DNA from: Patescibacteria group bacterium
Lineage (GTDB): Bacteria > Patescibacteriota > Patescibacteriia > JBDRGY01
Length of the DNA stretch: 64,000 nt
Assembly: GCA_043817315.1 (NCBI GenBank)
Contig: JBDRGY010000004.1
Span: 64,797-128,796 of the forward strand
Direction of reading: 5' to 3'
Below, piece after piece: positions 40,085 to 62,085 of the stretch. Every line of letters begins with the position of its first letter. The stretch's first letter is position 1. Made by a program: the position numbers and the translations under genes. The notes beneath the pieces were generated by a model. The model was not told the DNA's origin, ran no database searches, and was given only the letters and a program-made list of their open reading frames with translations.

Positions 40085-41352
40085 TGAGCAAAATTGCTAA
40101 AATCCACTCTTTGGAAATTTTAGATAGCCGGGGCTATCCCACTATCAAAGCCAAAGTCTATTTGGAAAACGGCGTTTGGGGCGGTGCCTCGGTACCGGCC
40201 GGTGCTTCCAAGGGAAAAAGTGAATCGACTGAACTTCGAGACGGTGACACAAGACGTTATCAGGGTAAGGGGGTGAAAAAGGCCATTTCTATAATAAATA
40301 CCCGCATTCAGCGCTTATTAAAGGGCGTGGACATCAATCTGATGCGGGAGATTGATAATAAAATGATCGAAAGTGACGGCACCAAGACCAAATCGGATAT
40401 GGGGGCCAACACCATCTTGGCCGTTTCTCTGGCCTGTGCCCGGGCCGGTGCTCTGCAAAATCAGAAACCGCTGCACCAGCACATCCGGGAAGTCTATGGC
40501 CTTGGTTTCAAAGACTATCAGTTACCCCTGCCCATGATTAATATTATTAACGGGGGCAAACACGCTGACAGCCGGACTAATATCCAGGAATATATGATAA
40601 TACCCAAGGCTGATAAATATTCGGAAATCATCCGCTACGGGGCTGAGGTTTTTCATCAGCTCAAAGAGATTCTAAGAGCCAAAGGGTTGTCAACCGGAGT
40701 GGGAGACGAAGGAGGATACGCTCCCCATTTTGAAAGCAATGAAATGCCTTTTCAGTTAATCCTGGAAGCGGTTTCTCAAGCCAACATGACAGCCGGAGAA
40801 CAGATTACTCTTGGCATCGATGCCGCGGCCGATAATTTTTATAACCAAGAGCAGAAAAAATATTTTCTGGAATTAGAAAATTCTTCACTGACTTCAGAGC
40901 AGCTGGCCGCCCTCTATTCGGAATGGGCCAACAAGTATCCGATTATTTCTGTGGAAGACGGTTTAGCTGAAGAAGACTTGGATGGCTGGGCCCTGCTCAA
41001 TAGTAAGCTGGGCAATAATATTTTGGTGGTAGGAGATGATCTCTTTGTTACTGATCAAGAAAGATTGAAAATAGGAGTAGCCAAGTCATTAGCCAACGCC
41101 ATCATTATCAAGCCCAATCAAGTGGGCACCCTGACGGAGACAATCGATTGTGTCCAGTTGGCTCAAGCCAACAAGTTTAAAGTAATTGTCTCAAACCGGT
41201 CTGGAGAGACCTGTGACAACTTTATTGCCGATCTGGCCATTGCGGTCAAAGCTGATTTTATCAAAACCGGTTCAATGTGCAGAGGGGAAAGAATAAGTAA
41301 ATATAATCGACTATTGGAAATCGAGGAGGAACTAACTCAAAATGAAGGCTAA
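40084..41352 (+). CDS. eno: enolase
   Basis: 422 aa. It has ILDSRGYPT, SVPAGASKGKSESTELRDGD, and the enolase metal- and substrate-binding layout. Confidence 0.9.
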   Translation: MSKIAKIHSLEILDSRGYPTIKAKVYLENGVWGGASVPAGASKGKSESTELRDGDTRRYQGKGVKKAISIINTRIQRLLKGVDINLMREIDNKMIESDGTKTKSDMGANTILAVSLACARAGALQNQKPLHQHIREVYGLGFKDYQLPLPMINIINGGKHADSRTNIQEYMIIPKADKYSEIIRYGAEVFHQLKEILRAKGLSTGVGDEGGYAPHFESNEMPFQLILEAVSQANMTAGEQITLGIDAAADNFYNQEQKKYFLELENSSLTSEQLAALYSEWANKYPIISVEDGLAEEDLDGWALLNSKLGNNILVVGDDLFVTDQERLKIGVAKSLANAIIIKPNQVGTLTETIDCVQLAQANKFKVIVSNRSGETCDNFIADLAIAVKADFIKTGSMCRGERISKYNRLLEIEEELTQNEG

Positions 41353-42904
41353 TAGACCTTTTTTACTTCTGATCTTAGACGGCTGGGGGATTGCTCCGGC
41401 CAGCAAGGGTAATGCTATTAATCTGGCTAAAACTCCTGTCATCGACCGGCTAAGTAAGAAATACCCCCATACTACCCTGTGTGCCTCAGGTCCTTGTGCT
41501 GGTCTACCCAAAAACCAGGTGGGTAATTCTGAAGCCGGGCATATGAATATCGGGAGCGGAAGGGTAGTGGATCAGGAAGAGATGATCATTACCGAAAGCG
41601 TTGACGACGGTACTTTTTTCAGAAACCCGGCTTTTATAGAGGCGGTTAATCATGTCAAAAGGAACAAAACCAGTCTCCATATCATGGGACTATTGACCTA
41701 TGACCAGAGTCCCCATGCCGACCCAGAACATTTAATGGCTATTATCAAGTTGGCCCGCCAGCACCATTTACCCAAAGTAGTGCTACATTTATTTACTGAT
41801 GGCCGTGATTCACCCCAATTCGCTGCTATCAAGATTGTAAAGGATCTGGAAAAAAAGCTTTATAGTAATGAGATGATCGCTACTATAATGGGCCGTTTTT
41901 ATGCCATGGACCGTAATAAAGCCTGGAAGCGTACCGAAAAAGCGTATAACGCTATGGTTTTAGGCAAGGGGATCAAGGCTGGCTCAGCCGAAGAAGCTAT
42001 TTTGCATGCCTATAACCGTAAAGAGACAGATGAATACATCCAGCCCACAATCTTGATGCAGGACCACAAACCACCTCAAACCATACAAAACGGTGACTCC
42101 ATAATATTCTTCAATTTTCGGTCTGATAGAGCCAGGCAGATTACCAAAGCTTTCGTTCAAAAGAAATTCAACAAGATGAACCCAGGTTCATTCATCCGCA
42201 AAAAAGCCTTACGGGATTTACGGTTTATTGCTATGACTGATTTTGGTCCTGATCTGGACAATGTCTTGACTGCCTTTCCTTCTGAAGACCTGGAAGAAAC
42301 TCTGCCCATGCAATTAGCTGATTTAAAACAACTCTATACTTCGGAAAGCGAGAAGTTCGCGCATGTTACTTACTTTTTTAACGGAGGGTATGCTGATCCG
42401 GTAGGTGGTGAATCCAGGATTATGATACCCTCACCTTCTGTTGAATCATATGCTGAGGTTCCAGAGATGAATATTGAAAAATTGACCAAGGCAGTCCTCA
42501 AACATATCAAAAATGATGAATTCGATTTTATCACCTGCAATTTCCCCAATCCCGATATGGTGGGACATACGGGTAATCTTAAGGCCGGCATCCAAGCCGC
42601 TGAGGCAGTTGATAAGCATACGGGACTTTTGGTAAGGGAGGTACAGGCAAAAAATGGGAAGGCAATTATTACTGCTGATCATGGCAACTTGGAAAACATG
42701 ATAAATCTAAAAACGCAGGAAGTCCATACGGAACACACTACCAACCCAGTACCTTTTATAGTGGTAAGCCAGGACAGTAAGGGGTTCTCTTTAGGCAAAA
42801 AGGGTATCTTGGCCAATATTGCCCCGACAATTTTAGACTTGATGGAGAGAGATATCCCCAAACAGATGAAGAGTAAGAGTTTGATCAGAAAGAAAGCAAG
42901 ATAA
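41342..42904 (+). CDS. gpmI: 2,3-bisphosphoglycerate-independent phosphoglycerate mutase, copy 1
   Basis: 520 aa. It has LLILDGWGIAP, NSEAGHMNIGSGRVV, and a C-terminal MVGHTGN. Confidence 0.85.
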   Translation: MKANRPFLLLILDGWGIAPASKGNAINLAKTPVIDRLSKKYPHTTLCASGPCAGLPKNQVGNSEAGHMNIGSGRVVDQEEMIITESVDDGTFFRNPAFIEAVNHVKRNKTSLHIMGLLTYDQSPHADPEHLMAIIKLARQHHLPKVVLHLFTDGRDSPQFAAIKIVKDLEKKLYSNEMIATIMGRFYAMDRNKAWKRTEKAYNAMVLGKGIKAGSAEEAILHAYNRKETDEYIQPTILMQDHKPPQTIQNGDSIIFFNFRSDRARQITKAFVQKKFNKMNPGSFIRKKALRDLRFIAMTDFGPDLDNVLTAFPSEDLEETLPMQLADLKQLYTSESEKFAHVTYFFNGGYADPVGGESRIMIPSPSVESYAEVPEMNIEKLTKAVLKHIKNDEFDFITCNFPNPDMVGHTGNLKAGIQAAEAVDKHTGLLVREVQAKNGKAIITADHGNLENMINLKTQEVHTEHTTNPVPFIVVSQDSKGFSLGKKGILANIAPTILDLMERDIPKQMKSKSLIRKKAR

Positions 42905-44485
42905 ATGAATAAAAAACCTTTTCTCTTAATTATCCTAGACGGTTGGGGAGTGGCCTCTCCTTCCAGGGGCAATGGCATCAGTTTGTCTAATACCCCCAAC
43001 TTTACCAATTTGGTACAGACTTTTCCCACTTTGACTTTGCAAGCCTCGGGAGAAGCCGTAGGTTTGTCCTGGGGAGAAATGGGAAATTCCGAAGTGGGCC
43101 ACATGAACCTGGGCGGAGGCAAAGTGATTTTTCAGGAATTACCCAGAATTACACGTGCCATTTCTGACGGCAGCTTCCAAGAAAATCAGGGGCTCAATAG
43201 TGCCATAGAGCATGTCAAAAAAAATAATTCTAAATTGCATCTTTTAGGTTTGGTCAGCAACGGTGGAATTCATAGTTTTAATGAACACCTGTATGCCCTG
43301 GTGGAATTAGCCAAACAAAAGGAAATTAATCAGGTTTTTATCCATGTCTTTTTAGACGGGCGAGACACTCCCCACAACAGCGGTTTGACCTTTATTCAGA
43401 AATTACAGAATCATCTCAATGAAGTCGGGGTGGGCAAAATTGCCACAATATCAGGGCGTTTTTACGCTATGGATCGGGATAATCGTTGGGAGCGTACCCA
43501 GAAGGCCTACCTGGCCCTAGCCGAGGGGCAGGCCGATAATAAAGCGGATAATCCGGTTACCGCAGTTGAGCAATCATATAATCAAAAAATATATGATGAA
43601 GAATTTATCCCAACTATGATTATGGAAAACGGCCAGACAGTGGCCAAGATTGATGATAACGACGCCTTAATTTACTTTAATTTCAGGGCGGATAGGGCCC
43701 GGCAACTTACCAAAGCACTGATTTTGCCAGGATTTGAAAAATTTCAACGCCCCAGATCCTTAAAAAATCTGCACCTGGTTACTATGACCAAATATGAGAA
43801 AGATTTACCGGTGACCGTAGCCTTTCCCAAAGAAACAATTGAAAACCCGCTTGGCAAAGTGCTAGCTGCTAATAAAATGACTCAGTTTCATATTGCCGAG
43901 ACAGAAAAATATGCCCACGTTACTTTCTTCTTCAATTGCGGTAAGGAAGATCCTTTCAAGGGAGAGACCCGAGCTCTGGTTCCTTCTCCATCTGTGGCTT
44001 CATACGATCAAAAGCCAGGAATGAGTGCCAACGAAGTCAAAGACCGCTTGATCCAGGAAATTAATTCCGGTAAGCAAGATTTTCTGGTGGTTAATTTTGC
44101 TAACGCCGATATGGTCGGCCATACCGGTAATCTAGAGGCGGTGATCGAGGCTGTCGGTAAAATTGACGTTTATCTGGGAGAAGTGATCAAGGCTGTTTTA
44201 AAAACTGGAGGGTCCGCTATCGTTACAGCCGATCACGGTAATGCGGAAGAATTGGTCAACTTGCAAACAGGCGAAATTCACAAAGAGCACACCACCAATC
44301 CAGTTCCCTGTATCATTGTAGGAGAAGGCTGGAGGAAAACTTCTCCGAACGTAAAATCCGATGATCTAAGCAAGGTTGTCCCTATCGGAGTTTTGTCAGA
44401 CGTGGCTCCCACTATCTTGAGTATTATGGGTAAAGAGAAGCATCCGGAGATGACAGGGAGAGATTTATTGAACTATATTAAATAA
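42905..44485 (+). CDS. gpmI: 2,3-bisphosphoglycerate-independent phosphoglycerate mutase, copy 2
   Basis: 526 aa. It has LLIILDGWGVASP, NSEVGHMNLGGGKVI, and MVGHTGN. It is a tandem paralog of copy 1. Confidence 0.85.
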   Translation: MNKKPFLLIILDGWGVASPSRGNGISLSNTPNFTNLVQTFPTLTLQASGEAVGLSWGEMGNSEVGHMNLGGGKVIFQELPRITRAISDGSFQENQGLNSAIEHVKKNNSKLHLLGLVSNGGIHSFNEHLYALVELAKQKEINQVFIHVFLDGRDTPHNSGLTFIQKLQNHLNEVGVGKIATISGRFYAMDRDNRWERTQKAYLALAEGQADNKADNPVTAVEQSYNQKIYDEEFIPTMIMENGQTVAKIDDNDALIYFNFRADRARQLTKALILPGFEKFQRPRSLKNLHLVTMTKYEKDLPVTVAFPKETIENPLGKVLAANKMTQFHIAETEKYAHVTFFFNCGKEDPFKGETRALVPSPSVASYDQKPGMSANEVKDRLIQEINSGKQDFLVVNFANADMVGHTGNLEAVIEAVGKIDVYLGEVIKAVLKTGGSAIVTADHGNAEELVNLQTGEIHKEHTTNPVPCIIVGEGWRKTSPNVKSDDLSKVVPIGVLSDVAPTILSIMGKEKHPEMTGRDLLNYIK

Positions 44486-45529: not shown

Positions 45530-46105
45530 ATGAAGACTCCCATAGCCATATCGGCTCGTCATATACACCTTTGTCAGAAAGATTTAGAACAACTTTTCGG
45601 AAAAGGTTATCAATTGACTAAAGCCAAAGACCTCAAACAAAAAGGGGAATTCGCCTCCAAGGAAACAGTAACTCTAAAAGGACCGAAAGGGGATCTGGAT
45701 GGAGTAAGAATTTTGGGGCCAGTCAGGGAGCAGAGTCAGGTAGAGATCAGCAAAACTGACGCCAGACGGTTGGGAATAGTGGCGCCAGTTCGTCTGTCAG
45801 GAAATCTATCAGGTTCTGGCTCAATTAATATGGTTGGTCCGAAGTCCTCACTTGATTTAAAAGAAGGGGTAATTGTGGCCAAAAGACATATTCACCTTTC
45901 AGAGAAAGAGGCCAAGAAAAACAATATCGCTAATGACCAGATTGTTTCCGTCAAGGTAGAAGGTGATAGGGAATTAATTTTTAATCAGGTAGTGGTTCGA
46001 GTTTCCGATCGGTACCAGCTGGAGATGCACCTGGATACTGATGAGGCTAACGCGGCAGATCTGGGTAATAAGGGAGAAGGGGAGATCTTGATTAATGTTG
46101 CTTAG
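45530..46105 (+). CDS. pduL: PduL-type phosphate acyltransferase (phosphotransacetylase)
   Basis: 191 aa. It has two internal repeats, each with an RHIHL motif (ISARHIHLCQKDLEQLFG and VAKRHIHLSEKEAKK). Confidence 0.7.
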   Translation: MKTPIAISARHIHLCQKDLEQLFGKGYQLTKAKDLKQKGEFASKETVTLKGPKGDLDGVRILGPVREQSQVEISKTDARRLGIVAPVRLSGNLSGSGSINMVGPKSSLDLKEGVIVAKRHIHLSEKEAKKNNIANDQIVSVKVEGDRELIFNQVVVRVSDRYQLEMHLDTDEANAADLGNKGEGEILINVA

Positions 46106-46391
46106 ATTTCCAGACAAGTTAAAGCAAAACCCGATAGTGGTAATGAGGAAATTTGGATATTACCCCCTACCGGACCCCAAAGCAAAACAGCTCAGTTTCG
46201 TCCGGCGCTTGGGCGCCAACTATTATCCCCGTTGGCATGCCTATCTAAACAAAGAAATGACCGGGATAAAACTGCATCTTGATATGAAAAAACCAAGTTA
46301 CGCAGGACACCACGCCCATTCCGGGGAATATGACAGTGATTTGGTCAAAGAAGAGGGGGAGAGAATCAGGCAATTAATGAGGAATATATGA
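46095..46391 (+). CDS. hypothetical small protein
   Basis: 98 aa. It bridges pduL and ackA with overlapping start and stop. No domain was recognised. Confidence 0.3.
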   Translation: MLLRFPDKLKQNPIVVMRKFGYYPLPDPKAKQLSFVRRLGANYYPRWHAYLNKEMTGIKLHLDMKKPSYAGHHAHSGEYDSDLVKEEGERIRQLMRNI

Positions 46392-47551: not shown

Positions 47552-47951
47552 AAGTGCCGGAGCCATCGTGGTTAATAAACAAAATCAGTTCTTGCTGTTA
47601 TTTCAAAACCAAAATGAATTCTGGGAATTTCCCAAGGGGGAACAGGAAAAGGGAGAAACCGAAAAACAGGCCCTGTGCCGGGAATTATTTGAGGAAACCG
47701 GCATCAAAAAATTCCAGTACCTTCCTGGATTTAAGCAAAAGAGCCATTACCGGTTTCAGCTAAAAGGAGTGCTCCACCAAAAAGAAGTTATCTTTTACTT
47801 AATTCGGACCGAAGATAAGGTGCATTTGTCTGACGAGCATATCAGTTACCGTTGGATACCGTACTCCGGAGCCATCAAGCTGTTAAAACATAAAAATTTG
47901 AGAGATTTATTGAAATCAGCCCAGCAATTTCTTAAATTGTCAGCTAAATAA
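47532..47951 (+). CDS. NUDIX hydrolase
   Basis: The Nudix box reads PKGEQEKGETEKQALCRELFEETGI. Confidence 0.65.
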   Translation: MRTQKDKSAGAIVVNKQNQFLLLFQNQNEFWEFPKGEQEKGETEKQALCRELFEETGIKKFQYLPGFKQKSHYRFQLKGVLHQKEVIFYLIRTEDKVHLSDEHISYRWIPYSGAIKLLKHKNLRDLLKSAQQFLKLSAK

Positions 47952-47972
47952 AACTATATTATAATAAAGACA

Positions 47973-49046
47973 ATGAAAAAGACTAAAAATTCCGGAAAAA
48001 GAGTACTAGCTATAGGCAATGAAGCAGTAGTCAGGGCCGCTTTAGCAGCGGGGGCCACTGCTTTTTTCGGTTATCCTATTACACCGGCCACGGAAATTAT
48101 TGCTTTGTGGCCCAAGTACCAGCCTAAATTTAAAACCAAGTTTTTACAAACCGAAGACGAACCTTCAGCCGGTTTCACCTTGATCGGGGCGGTATTGGCC
48201 GGGGCCAAAGCCTTTACGGCCACAGCCGGACCAGGCACAGTCTTGATGCAAGATGCCTTTTCCATGGCTGAAGCCATGAGGATTCCGACTGTTGCTGTCA
48301 TCGTACAGCGAGGCGGTCCCTCAACCGGTACAGTGATCTACAGTCAACAGGAAGTGCTGCTGACCTGCTTCGGAGGGAATGGTGAGGGCTTTCGGGTAGT
48401 TTATTCTCCTTCCAATTTACAGGAGCTCTACGATTTGACCATTCAAGCCTTTAATACAGCTTGGCAATACCGTTTTCCCACTTTTGTACTCACTGACGGT
48501 TATCTGGGCAAAATGAGAGGCTTAGTGGAATTTTACGATCCCAAAAAGAAAAGAATGAAATTAGTGCCACCGGAACCGATCCTGCTCAACCCCAAGAAGA
48601 AAAAGGGTACCTATGTTAACATGGCTAATTGTGTCAATCTGGAAGAAGATATTTTTCAGATTAATGAAAAGATCAGAAAAGATTTTCAGAAATACCGCCC
48701 CCAAATCGAGCAGTACCAAGAATACAAAACTAAAGATGCTGAGATATTAATAATTGCTCACAGTATTGTGGGAGCGGCCGCTCAGTCAGCCATCGACACC
48801 TTGAGACAGCAGGGGATTAAAGTTGGTTTATTCCGACCGATTACTCTGCAGCCTTTCCCGGCCAAGGCGGCCCTGCAATTGGCCAAGTCAGTTAAAAAGA
48901 TTGTGATACCGGAATCCTCAGTTGGCCAGTTTATCAAAATTGTAAAAGAAGCTCTATACGGACTGAAAGTACCTATACAACATTACGCACGTCCTGCTCT
49001 GGGGATCACTGCCGAAGAGATTGTGGCTTTGATCAAGAAAAAATGA
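47973..49046 (+). CDS. 2-oxoacid:ferredoxin oxidoreductase alpha subunit
   Basis: 357 aa. The N-terminus reads GNEAVVRAALAAGATAFFGYPITPATEII. Confidence 0.8.
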   Translation: MKKTKNSGKRVLAIGNEAVVRAALAAGATAFFGYPITPATEIIALWPKYQPKFKTKFLQTEDEPSAGFTLIGAVLAGAKAFTATAGPGTVLMQDAFSMAEAMRIPTVAVIVQRGGPSTGTVIYSQQEVLLTCFGGNGEGFRVVYSPSNLQELYDLTIQAFNTAWQYRFPTFVLTDGYLGKMRGLVEFYDPKKKRMKLVPPEPILLNPKKKKGTYVNMANCVNLEEDIFQINEKIRKDFQKYRPQIEQYQEYKTKDAEILIIAHSIVGAAAQSAIDTLRQQGIKVGLFRPITLQPFPAKAALQLAKSVKKIVIPESSVGQFIKIVKEALYGLKVPIQHYARPALGITAEEIVALIKKK

Positions 49047-49609
49047 GCAGAAGAGGATTCACTCTAGTGGAGCTGTTGGTAGTAATTGCTATTATCGGTT
49101 TGCTGGCAACTCTGGCCTTCGTAAGTTTGAACCGGGCCCGGTCTCAGGCTCGGGATACAGTCCGAATGCAAGACCTTAGTGGTATCACTAAGGCCCTGGA
49201 GCTCTATTATTCAGAAAATGAAAGATATCCCAGCAGCGCTGATTGCTTTTGTGATGCAACATGTACCGATATTTGTGTATCCCTTTCAGATGACTGGATT
49301 CCTGATATGCAAAAACATATGCCCCAACTTCCCCTGGATCCTTTATATGGTCAACAGTCAGGAGGCGAATCCCTTCATTATGAATATAGGAGTTTTTATC
49401 CTGAAGCGAACCATTATTGTGAAGTATATGCCAGTGCCAGAGATTGTTTTGAAGATTCTGCTGATCTCGTAGATACTGATGGTATTCATTTGCCATTTTC
49501 CCCCTATCTTTTATGCCTGGTACTGGAAACCGATGTTGAACCAGATAATTATTATCGAATGGTTGGTACCAACTCATATAAATATTGCACCGGGCAATTC
49601 GAGCCCTAA
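49043..49609 (+). CDS. type IV pilin / pseudopilin-like protein 1
   Basis: It has the prepilin motif MSRRG|FTLVELLVVIAIIGLLA with a Glu at +5. The ATG overlaps the korA stop (ATGA). The C-terminus carries Cys pairs and LPLDPL. Confidence 0.75.
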   Translation: MSRRGFTLVELLVVIAIIGLLATLAFVSLNRARSQARDTVRMQDLSGITKALELYYSENERYPSSADCFCDATCTDICVSLSDDWIPDMQKHMPQLPLDPLYGQQSGGESLHYEYRSFYPEANHYCEVYASARDCFEDSADLVDTDGIHLPFSPYLLCLVLETDVEPDNYYRMVGTNSYKYCTGQFEP

Positions 49610-49641
49610 TAATTAAATTACGGTTTCGGTGGTAAGAAATA

Positions 49642-50217
49642 ATGGAACAAAAAAACAAAAAAGGATTTACCCTGATGGAACTGCTGATTATTGTGGGCAT
49701 AATCGGGATTTTGGCCTCGTTGGTTTTTTTTCGTCTCAATGTTGCCAGGGCTAAAGCACGAGATGCCATGCGGCTGACAGATATCGATGCCATTAAGAAA
49801 GCTTTGAGCCTGTACGACGCCGAATATTTCAAGTACCCCAGCAGCGCTAATTGCGACGGTTCCAATATGCATATATGTGAGTCTTCAGTAGAAAATTCTA
49901 CCTGGTTGGCTGATTTGGATCAGTATATGCCCAAACAGCCCCATGACCCCTTGCAGGCCCAAAATCCCCAGGCCTATCGTTACCGCTACCAGAGTTTTTA
50001 CGAGCACCTGCCCATTTATTGTGTAGATTTGCCAGATGATCTTTGTTGGTATCAGGAAACCCCGTATCCTTATTTCAAAAGATTAGACGGTGGTAAAGAG
50101 GAATTGGAACCCAGCCCTTTTATCTTGTGTTTCAAGCTAGAAACCAACATGAGGCCCACCCCCAATGTTTATCAGATTTGGGACAATCATGACCTTTACT
50201 GCACCGGTGAATGGTAA
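49642..50217 (+). CDS. type IV pilin / pseudopilin-like protein 2
   Basis: It has KKG|FTLMELLIIVGIIGILAS and the motifs LPxDPL (as PHDPL) and FILCFKLETN. Confidence 0.75.
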   Translation: MEQKNKKGFTLMELLIIVGIIGILASLVFFRLNVARAKARDAMRLTDIDAIKKALSLYDAEYFKYPSSANCDGSNMHICESSVENSTWLADLDQYMPKQPHDPLQAQNPQAYRYRYQSFYEHLPIYCVDLPDDLCWYQETPYPYFKRLDGGKEELEPSPFILCFKLETNMRPTPNVYQIWDNHDLYCTGEW

Positions 50218-50241
50218 AAAAATGTTACTTTGATATTTAAT

Positions 50242-50736
50242 ATGATAAAAAAACAAAAAGGGTTTACCCTCGTTGAATTACTAGTAGTTATCGGTATTAT
50301 CGGTATCTTGGCTACCCTCGTTTTTGTTAACTTGTCCTCCTCTAGGGCCCAAGCCAGAAATTCCGTCAGGTTAGCTGCTGTTGATGCTATGGTCAAAGCC
50401 CTTGAAGCCTATTATCAGGACTATGAATACTATCCTAGCAGCATGACAGCTGCTTGCCCTGTGACCTTCATATGCAATAGCACTGATGCAAATGTCTGGA
50501 TACCTGGATTGGCCGACTATATCAATAGCCTACCCCACGACCCTCTAGAAGAACGGTTTCTGGGATTTCTCTATATGTACACTACTAATCCCATATATAA
50601 TTTCATAGTTGGTGGGGATTTCCATTACATCTTGTTCTATTATCTGGAAGGTGAGGATCATCGGCAATTCCGGGGGAACTTATTGCAAGTTACAGCAGGT
50701 AATTCGTTTTACTATTATCATGTGCCCCTGGAGTAA
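50242..50736 (+). CDS. type IV pilin / pseudopilin-like protein 3
   Basis: It has MIKKQKG|FTLVELLVVIGIIGILAT and LPHDPLEE. The frame is open from a TTG at 50230. Confidence 0.7.
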   Translation: MIKKQKGFTLVELLVVIGIIGILATLVFVNLSSSRAQARNSVRLAAVDAMVKALEAYYQDYEYYPSSMTAACPVTFICNSTDANVWIPGLADYINSLPHDPLEERFLGFLYMYTTNPIYNFIVGGDFHYILFYYLEGEDHRQFRGNLLQVTAGNSFYYYHVPLE

Positions 50737-50759
50737 AAAAAATTGATTAACGATATTTA

Positions 50760-51248
50760 ATGAGGAAAAAACAAAAAGGATTCACTTTAGTCGAATTATT
50801 AGTAGTAATAGCCATTATCGGGCTTTTGGCCACGCTGGCTTTTGTTAGTCTGAATAGGGCGCGAGCCCAGGCCAGAAATGCCGTCCGGTTAGCTGATATT
50901 GATGTCCTGGTCAAATCCATGGAGGCCTACTATCATGAAAATGAAAAATATCCGCATGAGGATATTGGTGATGATTGCTATAACAGTACTTGTGCCAGTA
51001 CCTCAGGCGACAATTGGCTTCCTGGCTTAGATGAATTTATTAATCGCCTTCCCCATGATCCGCTTGAAGAAACAGGTGGAATGTTTTATATGTATGGGAC
51101 TAACCCTGGTTGGAACTTTTTAACAGGTGAAGACTTCCATTATCTCATATTATATTTTCTGGAGGGAGAAAACCACTCAGAATTTCGAGGAAATTTCTGG
51201 CAAGTTTCAGGAAGCAATTCGGTATATTACTACTATGTGCCACGGTGA
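50760..51248 (+). CDS. type IV pilin / pseudopilin-like protein 4
   Basis: It has MRKKQKG|FTLVELLVVIAIIGLLAT and LPHDPLEE. Confidence 0.75.
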   Translation: MRKKQKGFTLVELLVVIAIIGLLATLAFVSLNRARAQARNAVRLADIDVLVKSMEAYYHENEKYPHEDIGDDCYNSTCASTSGDNWLPGLDEFINRLPHDPLEETGGMFYMYGTNPGWNFLTGEDFHYLILYFLEGENHSEFRGNFWQVSGSNSVYYYYVPR

Positions 51249-51277
51249 TAATCAAAACCCTTTGATATTTATTTTAG

Positions 51278-51799
51278 ATGAAAAGCAAACCTAAAGGTTA
51301 CGTCTTGGTTGAGCTATTGGTAGTAATCACCATTATTGGTATAATATCAACAGTCGCTTTTGTTTCTTTAAACTCAGCCAGAATTCAGGCCAGGGATGCT
51401 ACCCGTCTGCACGATATCGATAATCTGATGAAATCTTTTGAAGTCTACTACGCCGGGGAAGAGGGATATCCCAGTAGTGTGGGGTGTAATTTTAGCGGGA
51501 CCTGTCCGCCAGACTGGAATTGCGCCGATATCTGCGGGTCTAATGGTCAAGACGATTGGTTACCAGACATGAATATCTATCTGGAAAAATTGCCATCTGA
51601 TCTGTTGAATGAAAGAGGATTTCCTTACCACTACTTCTACCTTAATCCTACCCAGGGTTGGCTAGATACCTCCGGTAATCCTATTCCCGATAGTCCCTAT
51701 CTTCTCTGCTTTGTCCTAGAAAAAGAAATGGAACTGGATAATGCCCACCGCCATCAACAATTAGGTAATAATTTATACTGTAAAGGATTATTTCAATAA
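51278..51799 (+). CDS. type IV pilin / pseudopilin-like protein 5
   Basis: It has MKSKPKG|YVLVELLVVITIIGIIST with a Glu at +5, LPSDLLNE, and YLLCFVLEKE. Confidence 0.7.
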   Translation: MKSKPKGYVLVELLVVITIIGIISTVAFVSLNSARIQARDATRLHDIDNLMKSFEVYYAGEEGYPSSVGCNFSGTCPPDWNCADICGSNGQDDWLPDMNIYLEKLPSDLLNERGFPYHYFYLNPTQGWLDTSGNPIPDSPYLLCFVLEKEMELDNAHRHQQLGNNLYCKGLFQ

Positions 51800-51800
51800 A

Positions 51801-52526
51801 ATGATAGAACCCAAGTTTCCTAAATCAGTCAAAGCCGCTTCCAAGCCTCACAATTTTTGTCCGGGCTGCGGCCACCCCATCGTCTTACAGGCGATCGGGG
51901 AGATTATTGATGAATTAGGTCTGCAGGACAAAACAGTAGTCGGTCTGGATATCGGCTGTTCACTGCTAGCCTGGGACTTTTTTGACATTGATTCTACCCA
52001 AACGCATCATGGCCGGACCGGTCCGGTTATCTCAGGGTTCAAGAAAGTGAAACCGGAGAGTATTGGCATTATTTACATGGGAGATGGTGGTGCTTATGCT
52101 ATCGGGGCACAGCATCTGGTCAACGAAGCCATGCGCAATGAACCGGTAACTGTCATCGTGGTCAATAATTCCCTGTATGGAATGACCGGCGGACAGGAAG
52201 CACCCACCTCCATGCCTGATCAGGTAACCACTACAACCCCCTTTGGCGCTGACCAGAATTTTCTCAAAGGTCCGGAGATGGTGGCTGGTTTGACCAACAG
52301 CGAAGCTTATGTGGCCAGGGGCACTATCGATAACCCTATTCAGCTGAAATCTTTCATCAAAAAAGCGATTAAAAATCAGATGAAGGGAAAAGGCTTTTCT
52401 TTTGTGGAAGCGCTTTCGGTTTGTCCCACCAACTGGAAAACCGATGCCAAAGAGACATTTCAGTTTCTCAAAAAGATGAAAGCCACTTTTCCGGTCCAAG
52501 AGTTTAAAATTCCCAAAGGTTTATGA
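51801..52526 (+). CDS. 2-oxoacid:ferredoxin oxidoreductase beta (TPP-binding) subunit
   Basis: It has CPGCGHPIV and a TPP-binding motif (GDGG-type). Confidence 0.8.
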   Translation: MIEPKFPKSVKAASKPHNFCPGCGHPIVLQAIGEIIDELGLQDKTVVGLDIGCSLLAWDFFDIDSTQTHHGRTGPVISGFKKVKPESIGIIYMGDGGAYAIGAQHLVNEAMRNEPVTVIVVNNSLYGMTGGQEAPTSMPDQVTTTTPFGADQNFLKGPEMVAGLTNSEAYVARGTIDNPIQLKSFIKKAIKNQMKGKGFSFVEALSVCPTNWKTDAKETFQFLKKMKATFPVQEFKIPKGL

Positions 52527-53098
52527 ACCAAGATAAATATAAAATCGTAATAGCCGGTGAGGGCGGCCAAGGCGGTCAGACTATAGCCAAGATATTACTG
52601 GAAGCCGCCTACCGCAAGAAAATGGAAGTTTCTTACATTCCTAATTTTGGTGTAGAACAAAGAGGTGGAGTTTCTGTCGCCTTTGTCCTCTTAAGCAAAG
52701 AAGAGCCGATTGTCTATCCCAAATTTGATAAAGGAGATATCGTTGTTATCCTATCGGAACGATCGGTTAAGAGGACGCTGCGCTACGTAGACAAGAAAAC
52801 GACAGTTATCTACAACAGTACCTTTATTAAAAACTCCAAACCGATCAAGAAAGCAGCTAAAACGGTTATCGGCATTGATGCCACTACTATCGCCAAAGAA
52901 CAGCTGTCACCTAGAGTGTTTAATACAATAATATTGGGCAGTATAGCTGCCCAGCTGCAAGTAATCACCTTAAAGCAGATTCAGTCGGCGGTAAAAACCA
53001 CCTTAGGTCATAAATTCAAACAGAAACCCAAGTTGGAACAGCTAAATTTGCAGGCCGTAGAACTGGGATATGATTTAGTTACCAAGAATAAAAAATGA
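52523..53098 (+). CDS. 2-oxoacid:ferredoxin oxidoreductase gamma subunit
   Basis: 191 aa. The N-terminus VIAGEGGQGGQTIAKIL is typical of the POR/KOR gamma subunit. Confidence 0.7.
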   Translation: MNQDKYKIVIAGEGGQGGQTIAKILLEAAYRKKMEVSYIPNFGVEQRGGVSVAFVLLSKEEPIVYPKFDKGDIVVILSERSVKRTLRYVDKKTTVIYNSTFIKNSKPIKKAAKTVIGIDATTIAKEQLSPRVFNTIILGSIAAQLQVITLKQIQSAVKTTLGHKFKQKPKLEQLNLQAVELGYDLVTKNKK

Positions 53099-53361
53099 AA
53101 AACTTTAAGCCAACTTCAGAGGAAAACGACAAAGTCAAACACATAAGATTTTTAGGATTATGTAAGAGCTGCGGTATTTGCATAGAAAAGTGCCCCGCTA
53201 AATGTTTACGTTTCTCCGATGATAAAGTTGGCTATTACGGCTTACCCGCTATTGATGTCGATATTGAAAAATGTACTATTTGCATGACTTGCCAAAGAAG
53301 CTGTCCCGAGCAGGCAATAACGGTAGAACGTAAAGAGGCAAAACAGGTAAAGAAAAAATAA
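53095..53361 (+). CDS. 2-oxoacid:ferredoxin oxidoreductase delta subunit (2x[4Fe-4S] ferredoxin)
   Basis: 88 aa with the clusters CKSCGICIEKCP and CTICMTCQRSCP. Confidence 0.75.
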   Translation: MKNFKPTSEENDKVKHIRFLGLCKSCGICIEKCPAKCLRFSDDKVGYYGLPAIDVDIEKCTICMTCQRSCPEQAITVERKEAKQVKKK

Positions 53362-53379
53362 GCTAATTTAGTTAATGGA

Positions 53380-53404
53380 GACGGGGCCCAACCCGTTTTT
53401 TGAT
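53380..53404 (+). terminator. Rho-independent terminator
   Basis: gacggggcccaacccgtttttt. Confidence 0.55.
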
Positions 53405-53418
53405 TAACCGCAGGAAAG

Positions 53419-59971: not shown

Positions 59972-60199
59972 ATGATCAAACCAAAAGTCAATTTAGGTTC
60001 CAGGGTGTTGGTGGAGACAGTGGGGCGCCATTACCGTTTCCACATTGTTGATAGCCAGAAAGCTGATCCCACTAACGGTAAGATTTCCGGAGAATCGCCA
60101 ATAGGCCGTGCCCTGCTGGGCCACGGACGCCGGGAAAAGGTTAAAGTCAACCTGTTCAACGGGGAAACAGTTGATTATAAGATCGTCCGAGTCTATTAA
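59972..60199 (+). CDS. GreA/GreB C-terminal domain protein, stand-alone (second copy)
   Basis: 75 aa. KISGESPIGRALLGHGRREKVKV matches the GreA C-terminal consensus. Confidence 0.6.
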   Translation: MIKPKVNLGSRVLVETVGRHYRFHIVDSQKADPTNGKISGESPIGRALLGHGRREKVKVNLFNGETVDYKIVRVY

Positions 60200-60244
60200 A
60201 AACACCGGTTTTCAATATGTAGCTCTTTGAAAAAGGAGGTGAAA

Positions 60245-60367
60245 ATGCTGAATGGTTGTTTGCCGCAGTACTGCCAAAGGTGCGATTCCAGGCTATTGGG
60301 CATGGCTCCCTGTGTGGAGATCTGTCGCCATTGCCTAAAGAGGCTTAAAGATGCGGGGAGGTATTAA
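60245..60367 (+). CDS. small Cys-rich protein, 40 aa (sORF1)
   Basis: MLNGCLPQYCQRCDSRLLGMAPCVEICRHCLKRLKDAGRY has 8 Cys arranged as CxxxxCxxC...CxxxCxxC. A strong AAAGGAGGTG ribosome-binding site lies 5 nt upstream. Confidence 0.5.
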   Translation: MLNGCLPQYCQRCDSRLLGMAPCVEICRHCLKRLKDAGRY

Positions 60368-60368
60368 A

Positions 60369-60467
60369 ATGGCAGACCCAGGATTGGAAGAAATCGTGGA
60401 AGCGCTCTGGGAGACAGTGACCTTGCCGATCAAGATCATCTCCGAGATTCTTGGTGGCGATGAATAG
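60369..60467 (+). CDS. small acidic peptide, 32 aa (sORF2)
   Basis: MADPGLEEIVEALWETVTLPIKIISEILGGDE. It starts 1 nt after the sORF1 stop, which suggests translational coupling. Confidence 0.35.
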   Translation: MADPGLEEIVEALWETVTLPIKIISEILGGDE

Positions 60468-60540
60468 TGTTCGCCTAGTGACGTAGATTGGGGACATGGG
60501 CCCTACCCATGTTGGGATAGCCACTGGAAAGGAGTTGGAA

Positions 60541-60717
60541 ATGGATTTTACCTTTACTCCCCCGGAGAACTGTAAACAATGCATCAGATTTTCCAGGGCT
60601 GATGGTAATGTTTGCCCCGACCAGTACAGTTGTCCCCACGAAGGTACAGACCCTGGTCGCATCGTTAAGCGGCCCAAACCGCCACCCGATCATATGGGAA
60701 TCTTTCGGGATTATTAA
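60541..60717 (+). CDS. small Cys-containing protein, 58 aa (sORF3)
   Basis: A GGAAAGGAG ribosome-binding site lies upstream. The sequence is MDFTFTPPENCKQCIRFSRADGNVCPDQYSCPHEG.... It is followed by a terminator hairpin. Confidence 0.45.
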   Translation: MDFTFTPPENCKQCIRFSRADGNVCPDQYSCPHEGTDPGRIVKRPKPPPDHMGIFRDY

Positions 60718-60736
60718 ACTCTGTAACCTGTGGATG

Positions 60737-60780
60737 GAGCTGTTCATCTCAACCAGAACTGAACAGCTGGCTTCTTTTTG
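60737..60780 (+). terminator. terminator hairpin (copy 1 of a repeated element)
   Basis: ggagctgttca...tgaacagctggcttcttttt. Confidence 0.5.
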
Positions 60781-60821
60781 GGCCAAGTTACCGCTAAATC
60801 ACAATCCGAAAGGAGACGGAA

Positions 60822-61109
60822 ATGGAGAGCTACTCCGTAGAAGTCAGTCATGAATGGGGCATGTCTCACCCCTGGCACGGCGAGCCTGATCCTTGTCAGA
60901 TGTGCAGCAGGGGAGCCATGTTCGGTTGTGTCGGCTGCTACTACTATCATGAGAGGCGCGAGCCCAATCCCTACGAGCCCTGGCCCTATCCCAAGCCATA
61001 CGAACCTTATCCCAGGCCGTATGGCCCGGGTCCTTTTCCCGATTGGCGGGTGCCGCATTATGCCCAGCCGTTCGGGATGACGGTTTCCGCTGGAATGACC
61101 TGTTATTGA
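60822..61109 (+). CDS. small Cys- and Pro/Tyr-rich protein, 95 aa (sORF4)
   Basis: An AAAGGAGACGG ribosome-binding site lies upstream. It has CQMCSRGAMFGCVGC followed by the proline/tyrosine repeat PYEPWPYPKPYEPYPRPYGPGPFP. Confidence 0.45.
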   Translation: MESYSVEVSHEWGMSHPWHGEPDPCQMCSRGAMFGCVGCYYYHERREPNPYEPWPYPKPYEPYPRPYGPGPFPDWRVPHYAQPFGMTVSAGMTCY

Positions 61110-61119
61110 TCGATTTATA

Positions 61120-61165
61120 GAGCTGTTTACCTCAAGCAGAGCCAAACAGCTGGCTTGTAACTTGA
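61120..61165 (+). terminator. hairpin (copy 2 of the repeated element), a weaker terminator
   Basis: agagctgttta...ccaaacagctggcttgtaa. It is homologous to copy 1 with compensatory changes in the stem. Confidence 0.4.
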
Positions 61166-61207
61166 GCCAAGTCACTGACTAGCGGTAGTACTCTAAGGGA
61201 GGATAGA

Positions 61208-61507
61208 ATGGCTCCGACGGCTGCGGGCTTTGGTGGCCCGCTGGTTCCGGGAGGTCCGAGTGGTCCGATGAATCCTTATGATTCCGGACCGGTTTTCCAC
61301 CAGGCTGATCAGTTCGATTGTCACGTTGACGTTTTTGGAAACGTCGGTGTGATGGGACGCGATACGGCCTATATGGAGACTCCCAACTTCATCGTCGAGG
61401 ACACCTTCGTTGGCAGCTTCATGCAGGGTTCTCAGGCCTTCGATGACACCAGAGACCTGGAGATCATGGGTCCGGGTGCCAGACTTACCTCGATCACTCC
61501 GCTCTAG
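61208..61507 (+). CDS. small Gly/Pro-rich protein, 99 aa (sORF5)
   Basis: A TAAGGGAGG ribosome-binding site lies upstream. The N-terminus is MAPTAAGFGGPLVPGGPSGP and the C-terminal half is acidic. Confidence 0.45.
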   Translation: MAPTAAGFGGPLVPGGPSGPMNPYDSGPVFHQADQFDCHVDVFGNVGVMGRDTAYMETPNFIVEDTFVGSFMQGSQAFDDTRDLEIMGPGARLTSITPL

Positions 61508-61519
61508 GGGTTTTCCGGG

Positions 61520-61552
61520 GTTCGGGGCAGCATCAATATGCTGCCCCTATTT
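61520..61552 (+). terminator. Rho-independent terminator
   Basis: ggggcagcatcaatatgctgcccc followed by tatttttatt. Confidence 0.65.
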
Positions 61553-61555
61553 TTA

Positions 61556-61583
61556 TTGACAAAATCGGGTTTTCTGGTATGAT
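61556..61583 (+). promoter_or_regulatory. sigma70-like promoter for rnpB
   Basis: TTGACA, a 16-nt spacer, then TATGAT. The predicted transcription start is about 7 nt upstream of the RNase P P1 stem. Confidence 0.6.
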
Positions 61584-61590
61584 ACATTGT

Positions 61591-62071
61591 GCCCAAGTAG
61601 GCTGGATGATCGCCCCGCCCAATTCTTGAATCTTAACCTTTTAACGCTAGGATGCAGGAATTGGGCGGGGAGGAAAGTCCGAACACCCCCTGTATCGTAA
61701 GATGCGGGGAAGTAGACAGTCTGGAAATCAGACCGGGAGTAGATAAAGTTAGAAGTCCTATAGCCTTCTAGTTTTTTCAAAGCCCAGGGAAAGTGTCACA
61801 GAGACTACACTGCCGATGATCCCGTTCGGCTCTGCCGAGAGGGAAACAGGTGATGGTGAAAAGAGTGGGGTAAGAGCCCACAATCTGACCTGGTAACAGA
61901 TCAGAGCTGATAAACCCTGTCTGGTGCAAGACCGAATAGGCCCCTTGACCCAAAAGGGTCTACGGGGCGGGTAGGTCGCTTGACCCTTAAGTCCAGCTTG
62001 CTGGACCGGGGCTAGATAGATGATCGTCACCCCTTCGGGGTACAGAATTCGGCTTATAGGCCTGCTTGGGC
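61591..62071 (+). ncRNA. rnpB: RNase P RNA (bacterial type A)
   Basis: The P1 stem pairs gcccaagtaggc with gcctgcttgggc. The P4 5' strand is GGAGGAAAGTCCGAAC and the P4 3' strand is ACAGAATTCGGCTTATAG. The conserved GGTGAAAAGAGTGGGGTAAGAGCCCAC...GGTAACAGA block is present. Confidence 0.8.
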
Positions 62072-62085
62072 TAATTTGAGATTTT

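Follow-up and report, generated by a model that had tools for sequence, protein, structure and literature searches.

Type IV pilin-like genes between korA and korB of a 2-oxoacid:ferredoxin oxidoreductase operon in a narrow clade of Patescibacteria

Pilin genes inside an oxidoreductase operon

The stretch of DNA analysed here, hereafter the window, is a 64-kb segment of a metagenome-assembled genome (MAG) from the Patescibacteria, or Candidate Phyla Radiation (CPR; NCBI contig JBDRGY010000004.1, positions 64,797 to 128,796), in which the genes are co-directional and the GC content is 42%. Five tandem prepilin-type genes (49043–51799) split korA from korBCD of a four-subunit 2-oxoacid:ferredoxin oxidoreductase. 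The alpha-subunit gene korA (47973..49046, +) matches the Pfam domains POR_N (4.5e-47) and PFOR_II (2.7e-17), and its product is 100% identical to a protein from a Patescibacteria MAG. The thiamine pyrophosphate-binding beta subunit is encoded by korB (51801..52526, +; TPP_enzyme_C, 2.6e-20), the gamma subunit by korC (52523..53098, +; POR, 6e-36; TIGR02175, 97.3 bits against a cutoff of 81.1), and the delta subunit, a 2x[4Fe-4S] ferredoxin-like protein, by korD (53095..53361, +; Fer4_7, 6.4e-10, and related Fe-S families); korC overlaps korB by 4 nt, as korD does korC. By Pfam and NCBIfam, the domain types of all four subunits are intact. The NCBIfam equivalog models for the alpha and beta subunits score below their cutoffs, so the substrate may be pyruvate or another 2-oxoacid.

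The start codon of the first pilin gene overlaps the stop codon of korA (ATGA, 4 nt), and a single nucleotide lies between the stop codon of the fifth and the ATG of korB (taaAatg). From korA to korD, the successive junction distances are −4, 32, 24, 23, 29, 1, −4, and −4 nt. The alpha and beta genes are thus 2.75 kb apart, with unrelated genes for secreted proteins filling the space. An earlier reading, made from the sequence alone (the sequence-only reading), gave positions for korA, the five pilins, korB, korC, and korD that are matched exactly in the list of open reading frames (ORFs), and both the ATGA overlap and the near-abutting pilin 5–korB junction that it described are visible in the sequence.

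Upstream of the kor genes lie genes for phosphoglycerate kinase, enolase, two cofactor-independent phosphoglycerate mutases (iPGM), a PfkB-family kinase, a PduL-type phosphotransacylase, a small ORF, acetate kinase, and a NUDIX protein, and the synteny ackA-(nudix)-korA is kept in relatives. A NiFe hydrogenase subunit gene is also found nearby. The acetate kinase and phosphotransacylase context implies that the oxidoreductase feeds the ATP-yielding acetyl-phosphate/acetate branch, and hence belongs to core energy metabolism. The insertion is notable because the enzyme serves the core energy metabolism of a fermenter.

Five divergent prepilins

Each of the five inserted proteins starts with a short basic leader ending in Gly, followed by Phe or Tyr, and has Glu5. 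All five pass the curated cutoffs of PF07963 (N_methyl, 21.2 bits) and TIGR02532 (16.3 bits), with scores of 21.5–41.8 and 19.4–35.3 bits, respectively. Pilin 1 (49043..49609, +; 188 aa; 33.3 and 34.5 bits) has the leader MSRRG followed by FTLVE, contains eight Cys residues, and is of the slot-1, or “A-like,” type. Pilin 2 (49642..50217, +; 191 aa; 28.8 and 19.4 bits) has the leader MEQKNKKG before its Phe, contains six Cys, ends in YCTGEW, and is of the slot-2, or “B-like,” type. Pilin 3 (50242..50736, +; 164 aa; leader MIKKQKG before Phe; 37.7 and 32.4 bits) has two Cys and a short, aromatic-rich head, and its paralog pilin 4 (50760..51248, +; 162 aa; leader MRKKQKG before Phe; 41.8 and 35.3 bits) also has two Cys. 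Pilin 5 (51278..51799, +; 173 aa; leader MKSKPKG before Tyr; 21.5 and 24.3 bits) has six Cys and is barely over the N_methyl cutoff. The ATG at 50242, which gives pilin 3 a leader like those of its paralogs, is the more likely start codon than the TTG at 50230, where the ORF opens.

A regular expression for the prepilin motif, run on both strands of the 64 kb, returned five matches, each at the N-terminus of one pilin ORF, which argues that the motifs did not arise by chance. The sequence-only reading had credited all five proteins with the same G-F(Y)TLVE motif. GFTLVE is found in pilins 1, 3, and 4, while pilin 2 has GFTLME and pilin 5 has GYVLVE. The C-terminal Y/F-[IL]LC..LE block that it described can be found in pilins 1, 2, and 5 but not in pilin 3 (YILFYYLEGE) or pilin 4 (YLILYFLEGE), both of which lack Cys there; a terminal YC.G motif is likewise confined to pilins 1, 2, and 5. 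The W[IL]P[DG][LM] and LP[HLS]D[PL]L blocks, also attributed to all five, are replaced in pilin 2 by WLAD and QPHDPL.

The Cys counts are even in every protein (8, 6, 2, 2, and 6 in pilins 1–5), which fits disulfide-bonded extracellular heads. An AlphaFold2 model of pilin 1 (pLDDT 87.1, pTM 0.80) has the shape of a “lollipop,” with a 52-residue helix (residues 8–59) leading into a beta-rich head. A Foldseek search of this model against the PDB returned no significant neighbour (best E = 0.03, TM ≤ 0.40). The nearest folds were all pilins or pseudopilins, with type IVa and IVb forms mixed and none significant; Clostridioides difficile PilA1/PilW, the type IVb pilin of enterotoxigenic Escherichia coli, Neisseria PilE, and Vibrio EpsG were at the top. 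As no PDB fold reached E < 1e-3, the head of pilin 1 is regarded as divergent.

When the five head domains were run in an exhaustive HMMER search, 4,479 of 1.84 billion 50%-identity representatives matched at E ≤ 1e-3. About a dozen matches fell below 1e-20, and every one of these that was retrieved came from a member of the clade described below; the nearest match examined from outside the clade sits in an unrelated gene context. A word-indexed profile search with the same domains gave 18 matches, so the wider superfamily was visible only by exhaustive HMMER.

Distribution of the arrangement among related loci

KorA-related loci (numbered with the prefix L) were drawn from species-representative genomes and metagenomes, with some contigs present in both collections. 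The census covers the 124 loci in which korA and korB are both present, and these genes were scored as abutting when the gap was ≤150 nt. korA abuts korB in 103 of the 124, so the comparison supports an insertion in the window, as the sequence-only reading had proposed checking. Pilins were found in the gap only where KorA is ≥83% identical to that of the window, and in the next relatives (Berkelbacteria and other Patescibacteria, with KorA at most 58–61% identical) the kor genes are contiguous. The sequence-only reading had named universality in the lineage as a ground for abandoning its claim. The arrangement is not universal in Patescibacteria; it is restricted to a narrow clade, and is conserved there with variable copy number.

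The same arrangement is found in other assemblies. L133, an independent ENA assembly that covers the first two pilins, is 99% identical to the window over nudix-korA-pilin1-pilin2 and has the same junction, with pilin 1 itself 98% identical. Seven further independent contigs from JGI, ENA, NCBI, and Logan also carry pilins between korA and korB.

The number of pilins differs within the clade. The window has five, and three other populations (L002, L003–5, and L132/L053) have two. L001 and L006 have a first-slot pilin relic of ~170 nt (L001 1837–2010; L006 1726–1896) followed by one intact pilin, the second. L134 shows the reverse, with an intact first-slot pilin and a second-slot pilin (680–1000) that has lost its 5′ half and contains an in-frame stop. 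The L001 relic, which still opens at the ATGA overlap with korA, has the sequence MKRKKFKGFTLV*, with a nonsense codon at Glu5; that of L006 is frameshifted. By blastn, the first-slot relic is the product of an internal deletion. Decay is thus reciprocal among sister genomes, affecting slot 1 in L001/L006 and slot 2 in L134. This pattern implies that the insertion is older than the clade, that either gene can be lost, and that the lineage of the window expanded the set. Two pilins are most likely the ancestral state.

L006 (JAIWBS010000007.1) belongs to a MAG labelled Pirellulales, yet has the ackA-korA-pilin-korBCD-recJ synteny of the CPR clade and a KorA that is 88% identical, so it is probably a mis-binned Patescibacteria sequence. 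Several other loci, labelled “uncultured Gammaproteobacteria,” are also CPR-like.

Genes other than pilins were observed at the same junction in other CPR lineages. A 237-aa ORF in WWE3 (L014 8125–8838) has an ATGA overlap with korA, and a 407-aa ORF is found in Komeilibacteria (L023 8051–9274). L108 contains a 174-aa membrane protein (8002–8526), and six loci labelled Saccharibacteria (L041, L044, L046, L117, L126, and L130; e.g., L044 8163–8387) share a conserved membrane protein of 69–74 aa. No Pfam match and no prepilin motif was found in any of these inserts. Since unrelated genes recur there in at least four other CPR lineages, the korA–korB junction appears to tolerate insertions, which suggests that it is a recurrent permissive “landing site” in CPR bacteria. 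This tempers the claim of the sequence-only reading that the arrangement is unusual.

Signals flanking the operon

A promoter-like sequence (TTGTCA-17-TATAAT; 47937..47965, +), which matches 11 of 12 consensus positions and is the best site in a 12-kb scan, ends 7 nt 5′ of the korA ATG. TTGTTA, TTGTCA, or TTGTTT, followed after 16 or 17 nt by TATAAT and then by 7 nt and ATG, is kept in six loci (the window, L002, L003, L132, L001, and L006), with differing spacer sequences. The 7-nt spacing suggests the geometry of a leaderless or near-leaderless korA mRNA. At the other end of the operon, a terminator-like hairpin with a GC stem and a 6-nt loop, followed by TTTTTT, lies before recJ (53378..53402, +; −16.3 kcal/mol for 53362–53412), although a simple terminator scanner did not list it. 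CCCGTTTTTTGATTAACCGCA follows a differing stem sequence at the corresponding position in L006 and L001, and is conserved in all three loci that extend past korD.

Between these two signals, no pilin junction folds stably (−1.7 to −6.8 kcal/mol), and the spacers between the last pilin and korB in relatives are A-rich, 8–24 nt long, and without shared −10/−35 hexamers. The sequence-only reading would have given way to a terminator and promoter between korA and pilin 1 and between pilin 5 and korB; these junctions consist of the 4-nt overlap and the 1-nt gap, with neither a terminator-like hairpin nor a conserved promoter. Its proposal that the pilins are co-transcribed with the kor genes is consistent with the conserved flanking signals and with the lack of internal ones, and remains a prediction from sequence.

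A Shine-Dalgarno (SD) core is found upstream of 13 of the 52 genes in the window. Because the genome is SD-poor, the missing SD sequences before the pilin genes are normal here.

Duplication and divergence of the pilins

The pilin paralogs in the window share 56–70% DNA identity. Pilins 3, 4, and 5 repeat with a tandem period of ~518 nt that includes a shared intergenic motif, CTTTGATATTTA. In the extended form CTTTGATATTTA(A/T)T, it stands directly before the start codons of these three genes (50228–50257, 50748–50777, and 51260–51289), and could be left over from the duplicated unit or act in the initiation of translation. Pilins 3 and 4 are 59% identical and form a pair with full bootstrap support in a neighbour-joining (NJ) tree. 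In the same tree, pilins 1 and 5 group with the slot-1 pilins of relatives and pilin 2 with those of slot 2, as its Cys pattern and C-terminal motif also indicate. In the alignment, pilin 5 resembles the L002 and L003 pilins of slot 1 in having a CPPDWNC insert. That the copies arose recently, or by cassette recombination, was considered and rejected, given the 56–70% identity and the lack of long identical repeats (the best is 114 nt at 61–78%); the tandem duplications behind the five copies are old.

Across the clade, the pilins are 35–50% identical, compared with 83–88% for KorA and 81–85% for KorB. Between the window and L133, the codon changes in korA are 25 synonymous and 3 nonsynonymous; in pilin 1 they are 2 and 3, respectively. 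These strain counts, though small, point in the same direction as the clade-wide identities, towards a constrained enzyme beside fast-evolving surface proteins. Within korA, 13 of the 30 differences between the window and L133 fall in 35 nt (48773–48807) and are mostly synonymous, which resembles a short recombination tract or mosaic.

A recent horizontal transfer of the pilin block was also rejected, as there is no compositional signal (GC 0.39–0.44 compared with 0.418 for the window). AT skew alone flips in the block, as expected of genes for Tyr/Phe/Leu-rich proteins.

A pilin cassette carried by a fermentation operon

What lies at this locus is a known enzyme operon carrying a dynamic, lineage-restricted pilin cassette. 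We think it probable that the pilins are an ancestral insertion, transcribed as part of the main fermentation operon that yields ATP, and that old duplications later expanded the set. An ancestor of this narrow clade would have gained genes for type IV pilins at the korA–korB junction, with two copies ancestrally, five arising by tandem duplication in the lineage of the window, and one copy decaying elsewhere. A single korA-pilins-korBCD mRNA would run from the promoter 7 nt before korA to the terminator after korD, with translation of pilin 1 coupled to that of korA via the ATGA overlap. We infer that type IV pilus machinery encoded elsewhere in the genome would cleave the prepilins and build pili from them, and that these, by analogy with cultivated Patescibacteria, would act in attachment to hosts, in motility, or in the uptake of DNA. 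The link to the oxidoreductase would be one of expression and not of chemistry, with the pilins hitch-hiking on a strong constitutive operon in a promoter-poor genome. The arrangement is real and unusual, and is most likely a case of expression hitch-hiking rather than of a new mechanism.

Several points weigh against this account. Inspection of N-terminal sequences by eye, with Pfam applied in part, revealed no prepilin peptidase, PilB/PilT ATPase, or PilC in the 64 kb of the window. Promoter-like hexamers occur inside pilin 3 (50273–50300, 9/12 matches) and pilin 5 (51317–51345, 10/12, with an extended TG). Operons generally tend to keep the genes of interacting subunits adjacent, and the 2.75-kb split of korA and korB runs counter to this tendency; purely neutral hitch-hiking has to accept some cost of separating the alpha and beta genes. 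The NJ bootstrap values are <50 except for pilins 3 and 4 (100), L001 with L006 (100), and L001/L006 with L003 in slot 2 (73). With slot orthology below 50, the A/B grouping is descriptive only.

The pilins and korBCD could instead be separate transcription units with internal promoters, korBCD being transcribed from one in pilin 5, in which case their adjacency to korA would be merely physical. This seems rather unlikely. The sigma-70-like sites inside pilins 3 and 5, the latter reading TTGGTA-17-TATAAT, would suit it, as would the AT-rich CTTTGATATTTA ahead of pilins 3, 4, and 5 and the 170-nt non-coding stretch before the remaining pilin of L001 and L006, which could hold a promoter. However, the region contains 27 promoter-like sites compared with 24.2 ± 4.7 in shuffled sequences, and those inside the pilins have no conserved equivalents in relatives; they may be functional or noise. 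The shared CTTTGATATTTA is explained by duplication of the 518-nt unit, no terminator-like hairpin lies between any gene pair, and the two outer junctions, a 4-nt overlap and a 1-nt gap, are too tight to hold signals.

A second alternative would leave the operon as described but assign the five proteins to a short pseudopilus, resembling that of type II secretion systems (T2SS) or ComG, for DNA uptake or secretion. GspG (TIGR01710) is the best-scoring full-length NCBIfam model for all five (51.3, 52.4, 50.5, 51.4, and 27.8 bits), ComGC and ComGE give weak matches, and three of the five have a weak, below-cutoff match to Pfam T2SSG. CPR bacteria rely on nucleotides taken up from outside, and a role of pili in acquiring DNA is a common proposal. 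These scores are nevertheless far under the curated cutoffs, and membership was rejected both for GspG (at most 52.4 bits against 88.85) and for ComGC (NF040999; at most 32.6 bits against 75, with no match for pilin 5). With GspG scores of 28–52 bits against a cutoff of 88.85, we regard the proteins as members of the pilin superfamily and not as GspG orthologs. Compared with GspG and Gram-positive pilins, their heads are larger, with one to four predicted disulfides, and the pilin 1 model finds no close structural counterpart (Foldseek E ≥ 0.03). The structural neighbours of pilin 1 mix type IVa pilins, type IVb pilins, and pseudopilins, and five interchangeable, fast-evolving, disulfide-rich paralogs resemble variants of a major pilin more than a G/H/I/J/K-type set. 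A pseudopilus seems unlikely.

A functional coupling, in which the filament cooperates with the ferredoxin-reducing enzyme, for instance as an outlet of electrons to a host or mineral like that of electrically conductive pilins (e-pilins), would give a CPR fermenter without respiration a pilus-based means of disposing of reducing equivalents. Such coupling, which could also take the form of a redox link to the host made on contact, would then be the reason for the pilins' place in the kor operon. Criteria for e-pilins are an aromatic content of ≥9.8%, aromatic-free gaps of ≤22 residues, and aromatic residues at positions 1, 24, 27, 50/51, and 32/57 (10.1101/668343). The mature pilins are aromatic-rich (F+Y+W, 12.0–16.6%, above the 9.8% threshold, compared with 8.0% in neighbouring proteins), with F/Y1, Y50 (Y51 in four of five), and Y57. 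A fermenter must dispose of reduced ferredoxin, the NiFe hydrogenase subunit is encoded nearby, and the arrangement persists across the clade. However, the screen failed at positions 24 and 27 in all five proteins (L24, and A27 or S27) and on gap length in four (27–28 residues in pilins 1–4), and e-pilin membership was rejected. With 155–183 aa in the mature form, these are large-headed pilins, unlike the short Geobacter type, with which they share the N-terminus of a type IV pilin and a high content of aromatic residues. Whether pilin filaments are conductive is itself a matter of dispute. Within the clade, either slot decays and the copy number varies from one to five, and the rest of the surveyed Patescibacteria have the enzyme but no pilin genes in its operon. 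The unrelated genes at the same junction in other CPR lineages favour the view that inserted genes gain expression by read-through, and argue against a specific partnership between pilins and oxidoreductase. Taken together, functional coupling seems highly improbable.

Although the window derives from a MAG, a chimeric contig or mis-assembly, with a pilin array wrongly joined to a kor operon that had been split, can be dismissed with near certainty, because independent assemblies agree (L133 at 99% identity and the seven further contigs) and the base composition is uniform.

Comparison with known systems

Almost all cultivated Saccharibacteria have type IV pili, which are strongly expressed and serve for binding to the host and for twitching (PMC11623550). 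They offer the best functional analogy for the pilins embedded in the kor operon. Like the window pilins, PilA1 and PilA2 of TM7x (Nanosynbacter lyticus) have a prepilin leader, a Gly-Phe cleavage motif with Glu5, and a globular head on a hydrophobic N-terminal helix; they, too, occur as several paralogs per genome, have limited homology outside their phylum, and are expected to act in host binding or motility (PMC11623550). Unlike the window pilins, which lie in a catabolic operon, those of TM7x are encoded in dedicated pilus loci beside the machinery (PMC11623550). The tight head-domain family of the window pilins is, moreover, confined to its own clade.

The kor genes themselves resemble the korABCD/por/vor operons of anaerobes and of other Patescibacteria in subunits, gene order, the overlaps among korB, korC, and korD, and synteny with acetate kinase. 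They differ from those operons in the 2.75 kb between the alpha and beta genes, which are contiguous in the 103 abutting loci of the census.

Tandem arrays of pilin paralogs are found elsewhere, such as the multiple pilA genes of cyanobacteria and clostridia, and pilE/pilS underlie variation in Neisseria. The window array is similar in its diverged head-to-tail paralogs, fast-evolving heads, and gain and loss of copies, but lacks the long identical repeats that would allow cassette recombination. Its five copies are complete genes with leaders rather than silent cassettes, and lie inside a metabolic operon. A literature search of a full-text library, combining pilins, ferredoxin oxidoreductases, CPR bacteria, and operons, found two papers; judged by title and abstract, neither seems to deal with such an arrangement.

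Type IV pili are the main known means for ultrasmall CPR bacteria to locate and cling to hosts, and little is known about their regulation. Pilin production in this clade appears to be hard-wired to the operon that feeds the main ATP-yielding pathway, with no separate regulatory input. The locus could thus serve as a natural case of how surface structures are expressed in genome-reduced bacteria with very few promoters, of the tolerance of operons to insertions between genes for interacting subunits, and of the turnover of a pilin repertoire (one to five copies, with reciprocal decay) beside a constant enzyme.

Other features of the window

Two iPGM paralogs (iPGM_N and Metalloenzyme domains) are found in tandem directly 3′ of the enolase gene, at 41342–42904 and 42905–44485. 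The small ORF upstream of the kor genes (46095–46391) overlaps the PduL-type phosphotransacylase and acetate kinase genes on either side, and is conserved in L002 (1282–1530) and L133 (195–491); its products are 82–98 aa long and have no Pfam match. It is thus a further gene set into the acetate-forming module.

We also observed a GC-rich islet at ~60100–61590 (+), with a GC content of 0.48–0.57 compared with 0.42. This ~1.5-kb region was considered as a structured RNA, and gave no Rfam match and fold z-scores of −0.98 and −0.36. It contains short ORFs starting at about 60245, 60369, 60541, and 60822, each after a strong GGAGG-type ribosome-binding site; two of the predicted peptides are Cys-rich and one is Pro/Tyr-rich. 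The islet may be a foreign cluster of small peptides. ARAGORN found no tRNA genes in the 64 kb. Just downstream of the islet lies a class A RNase P RNA (61594–62072, +; 184 bits), which, at 479 nt on a model of 367 positions, contains insertions.

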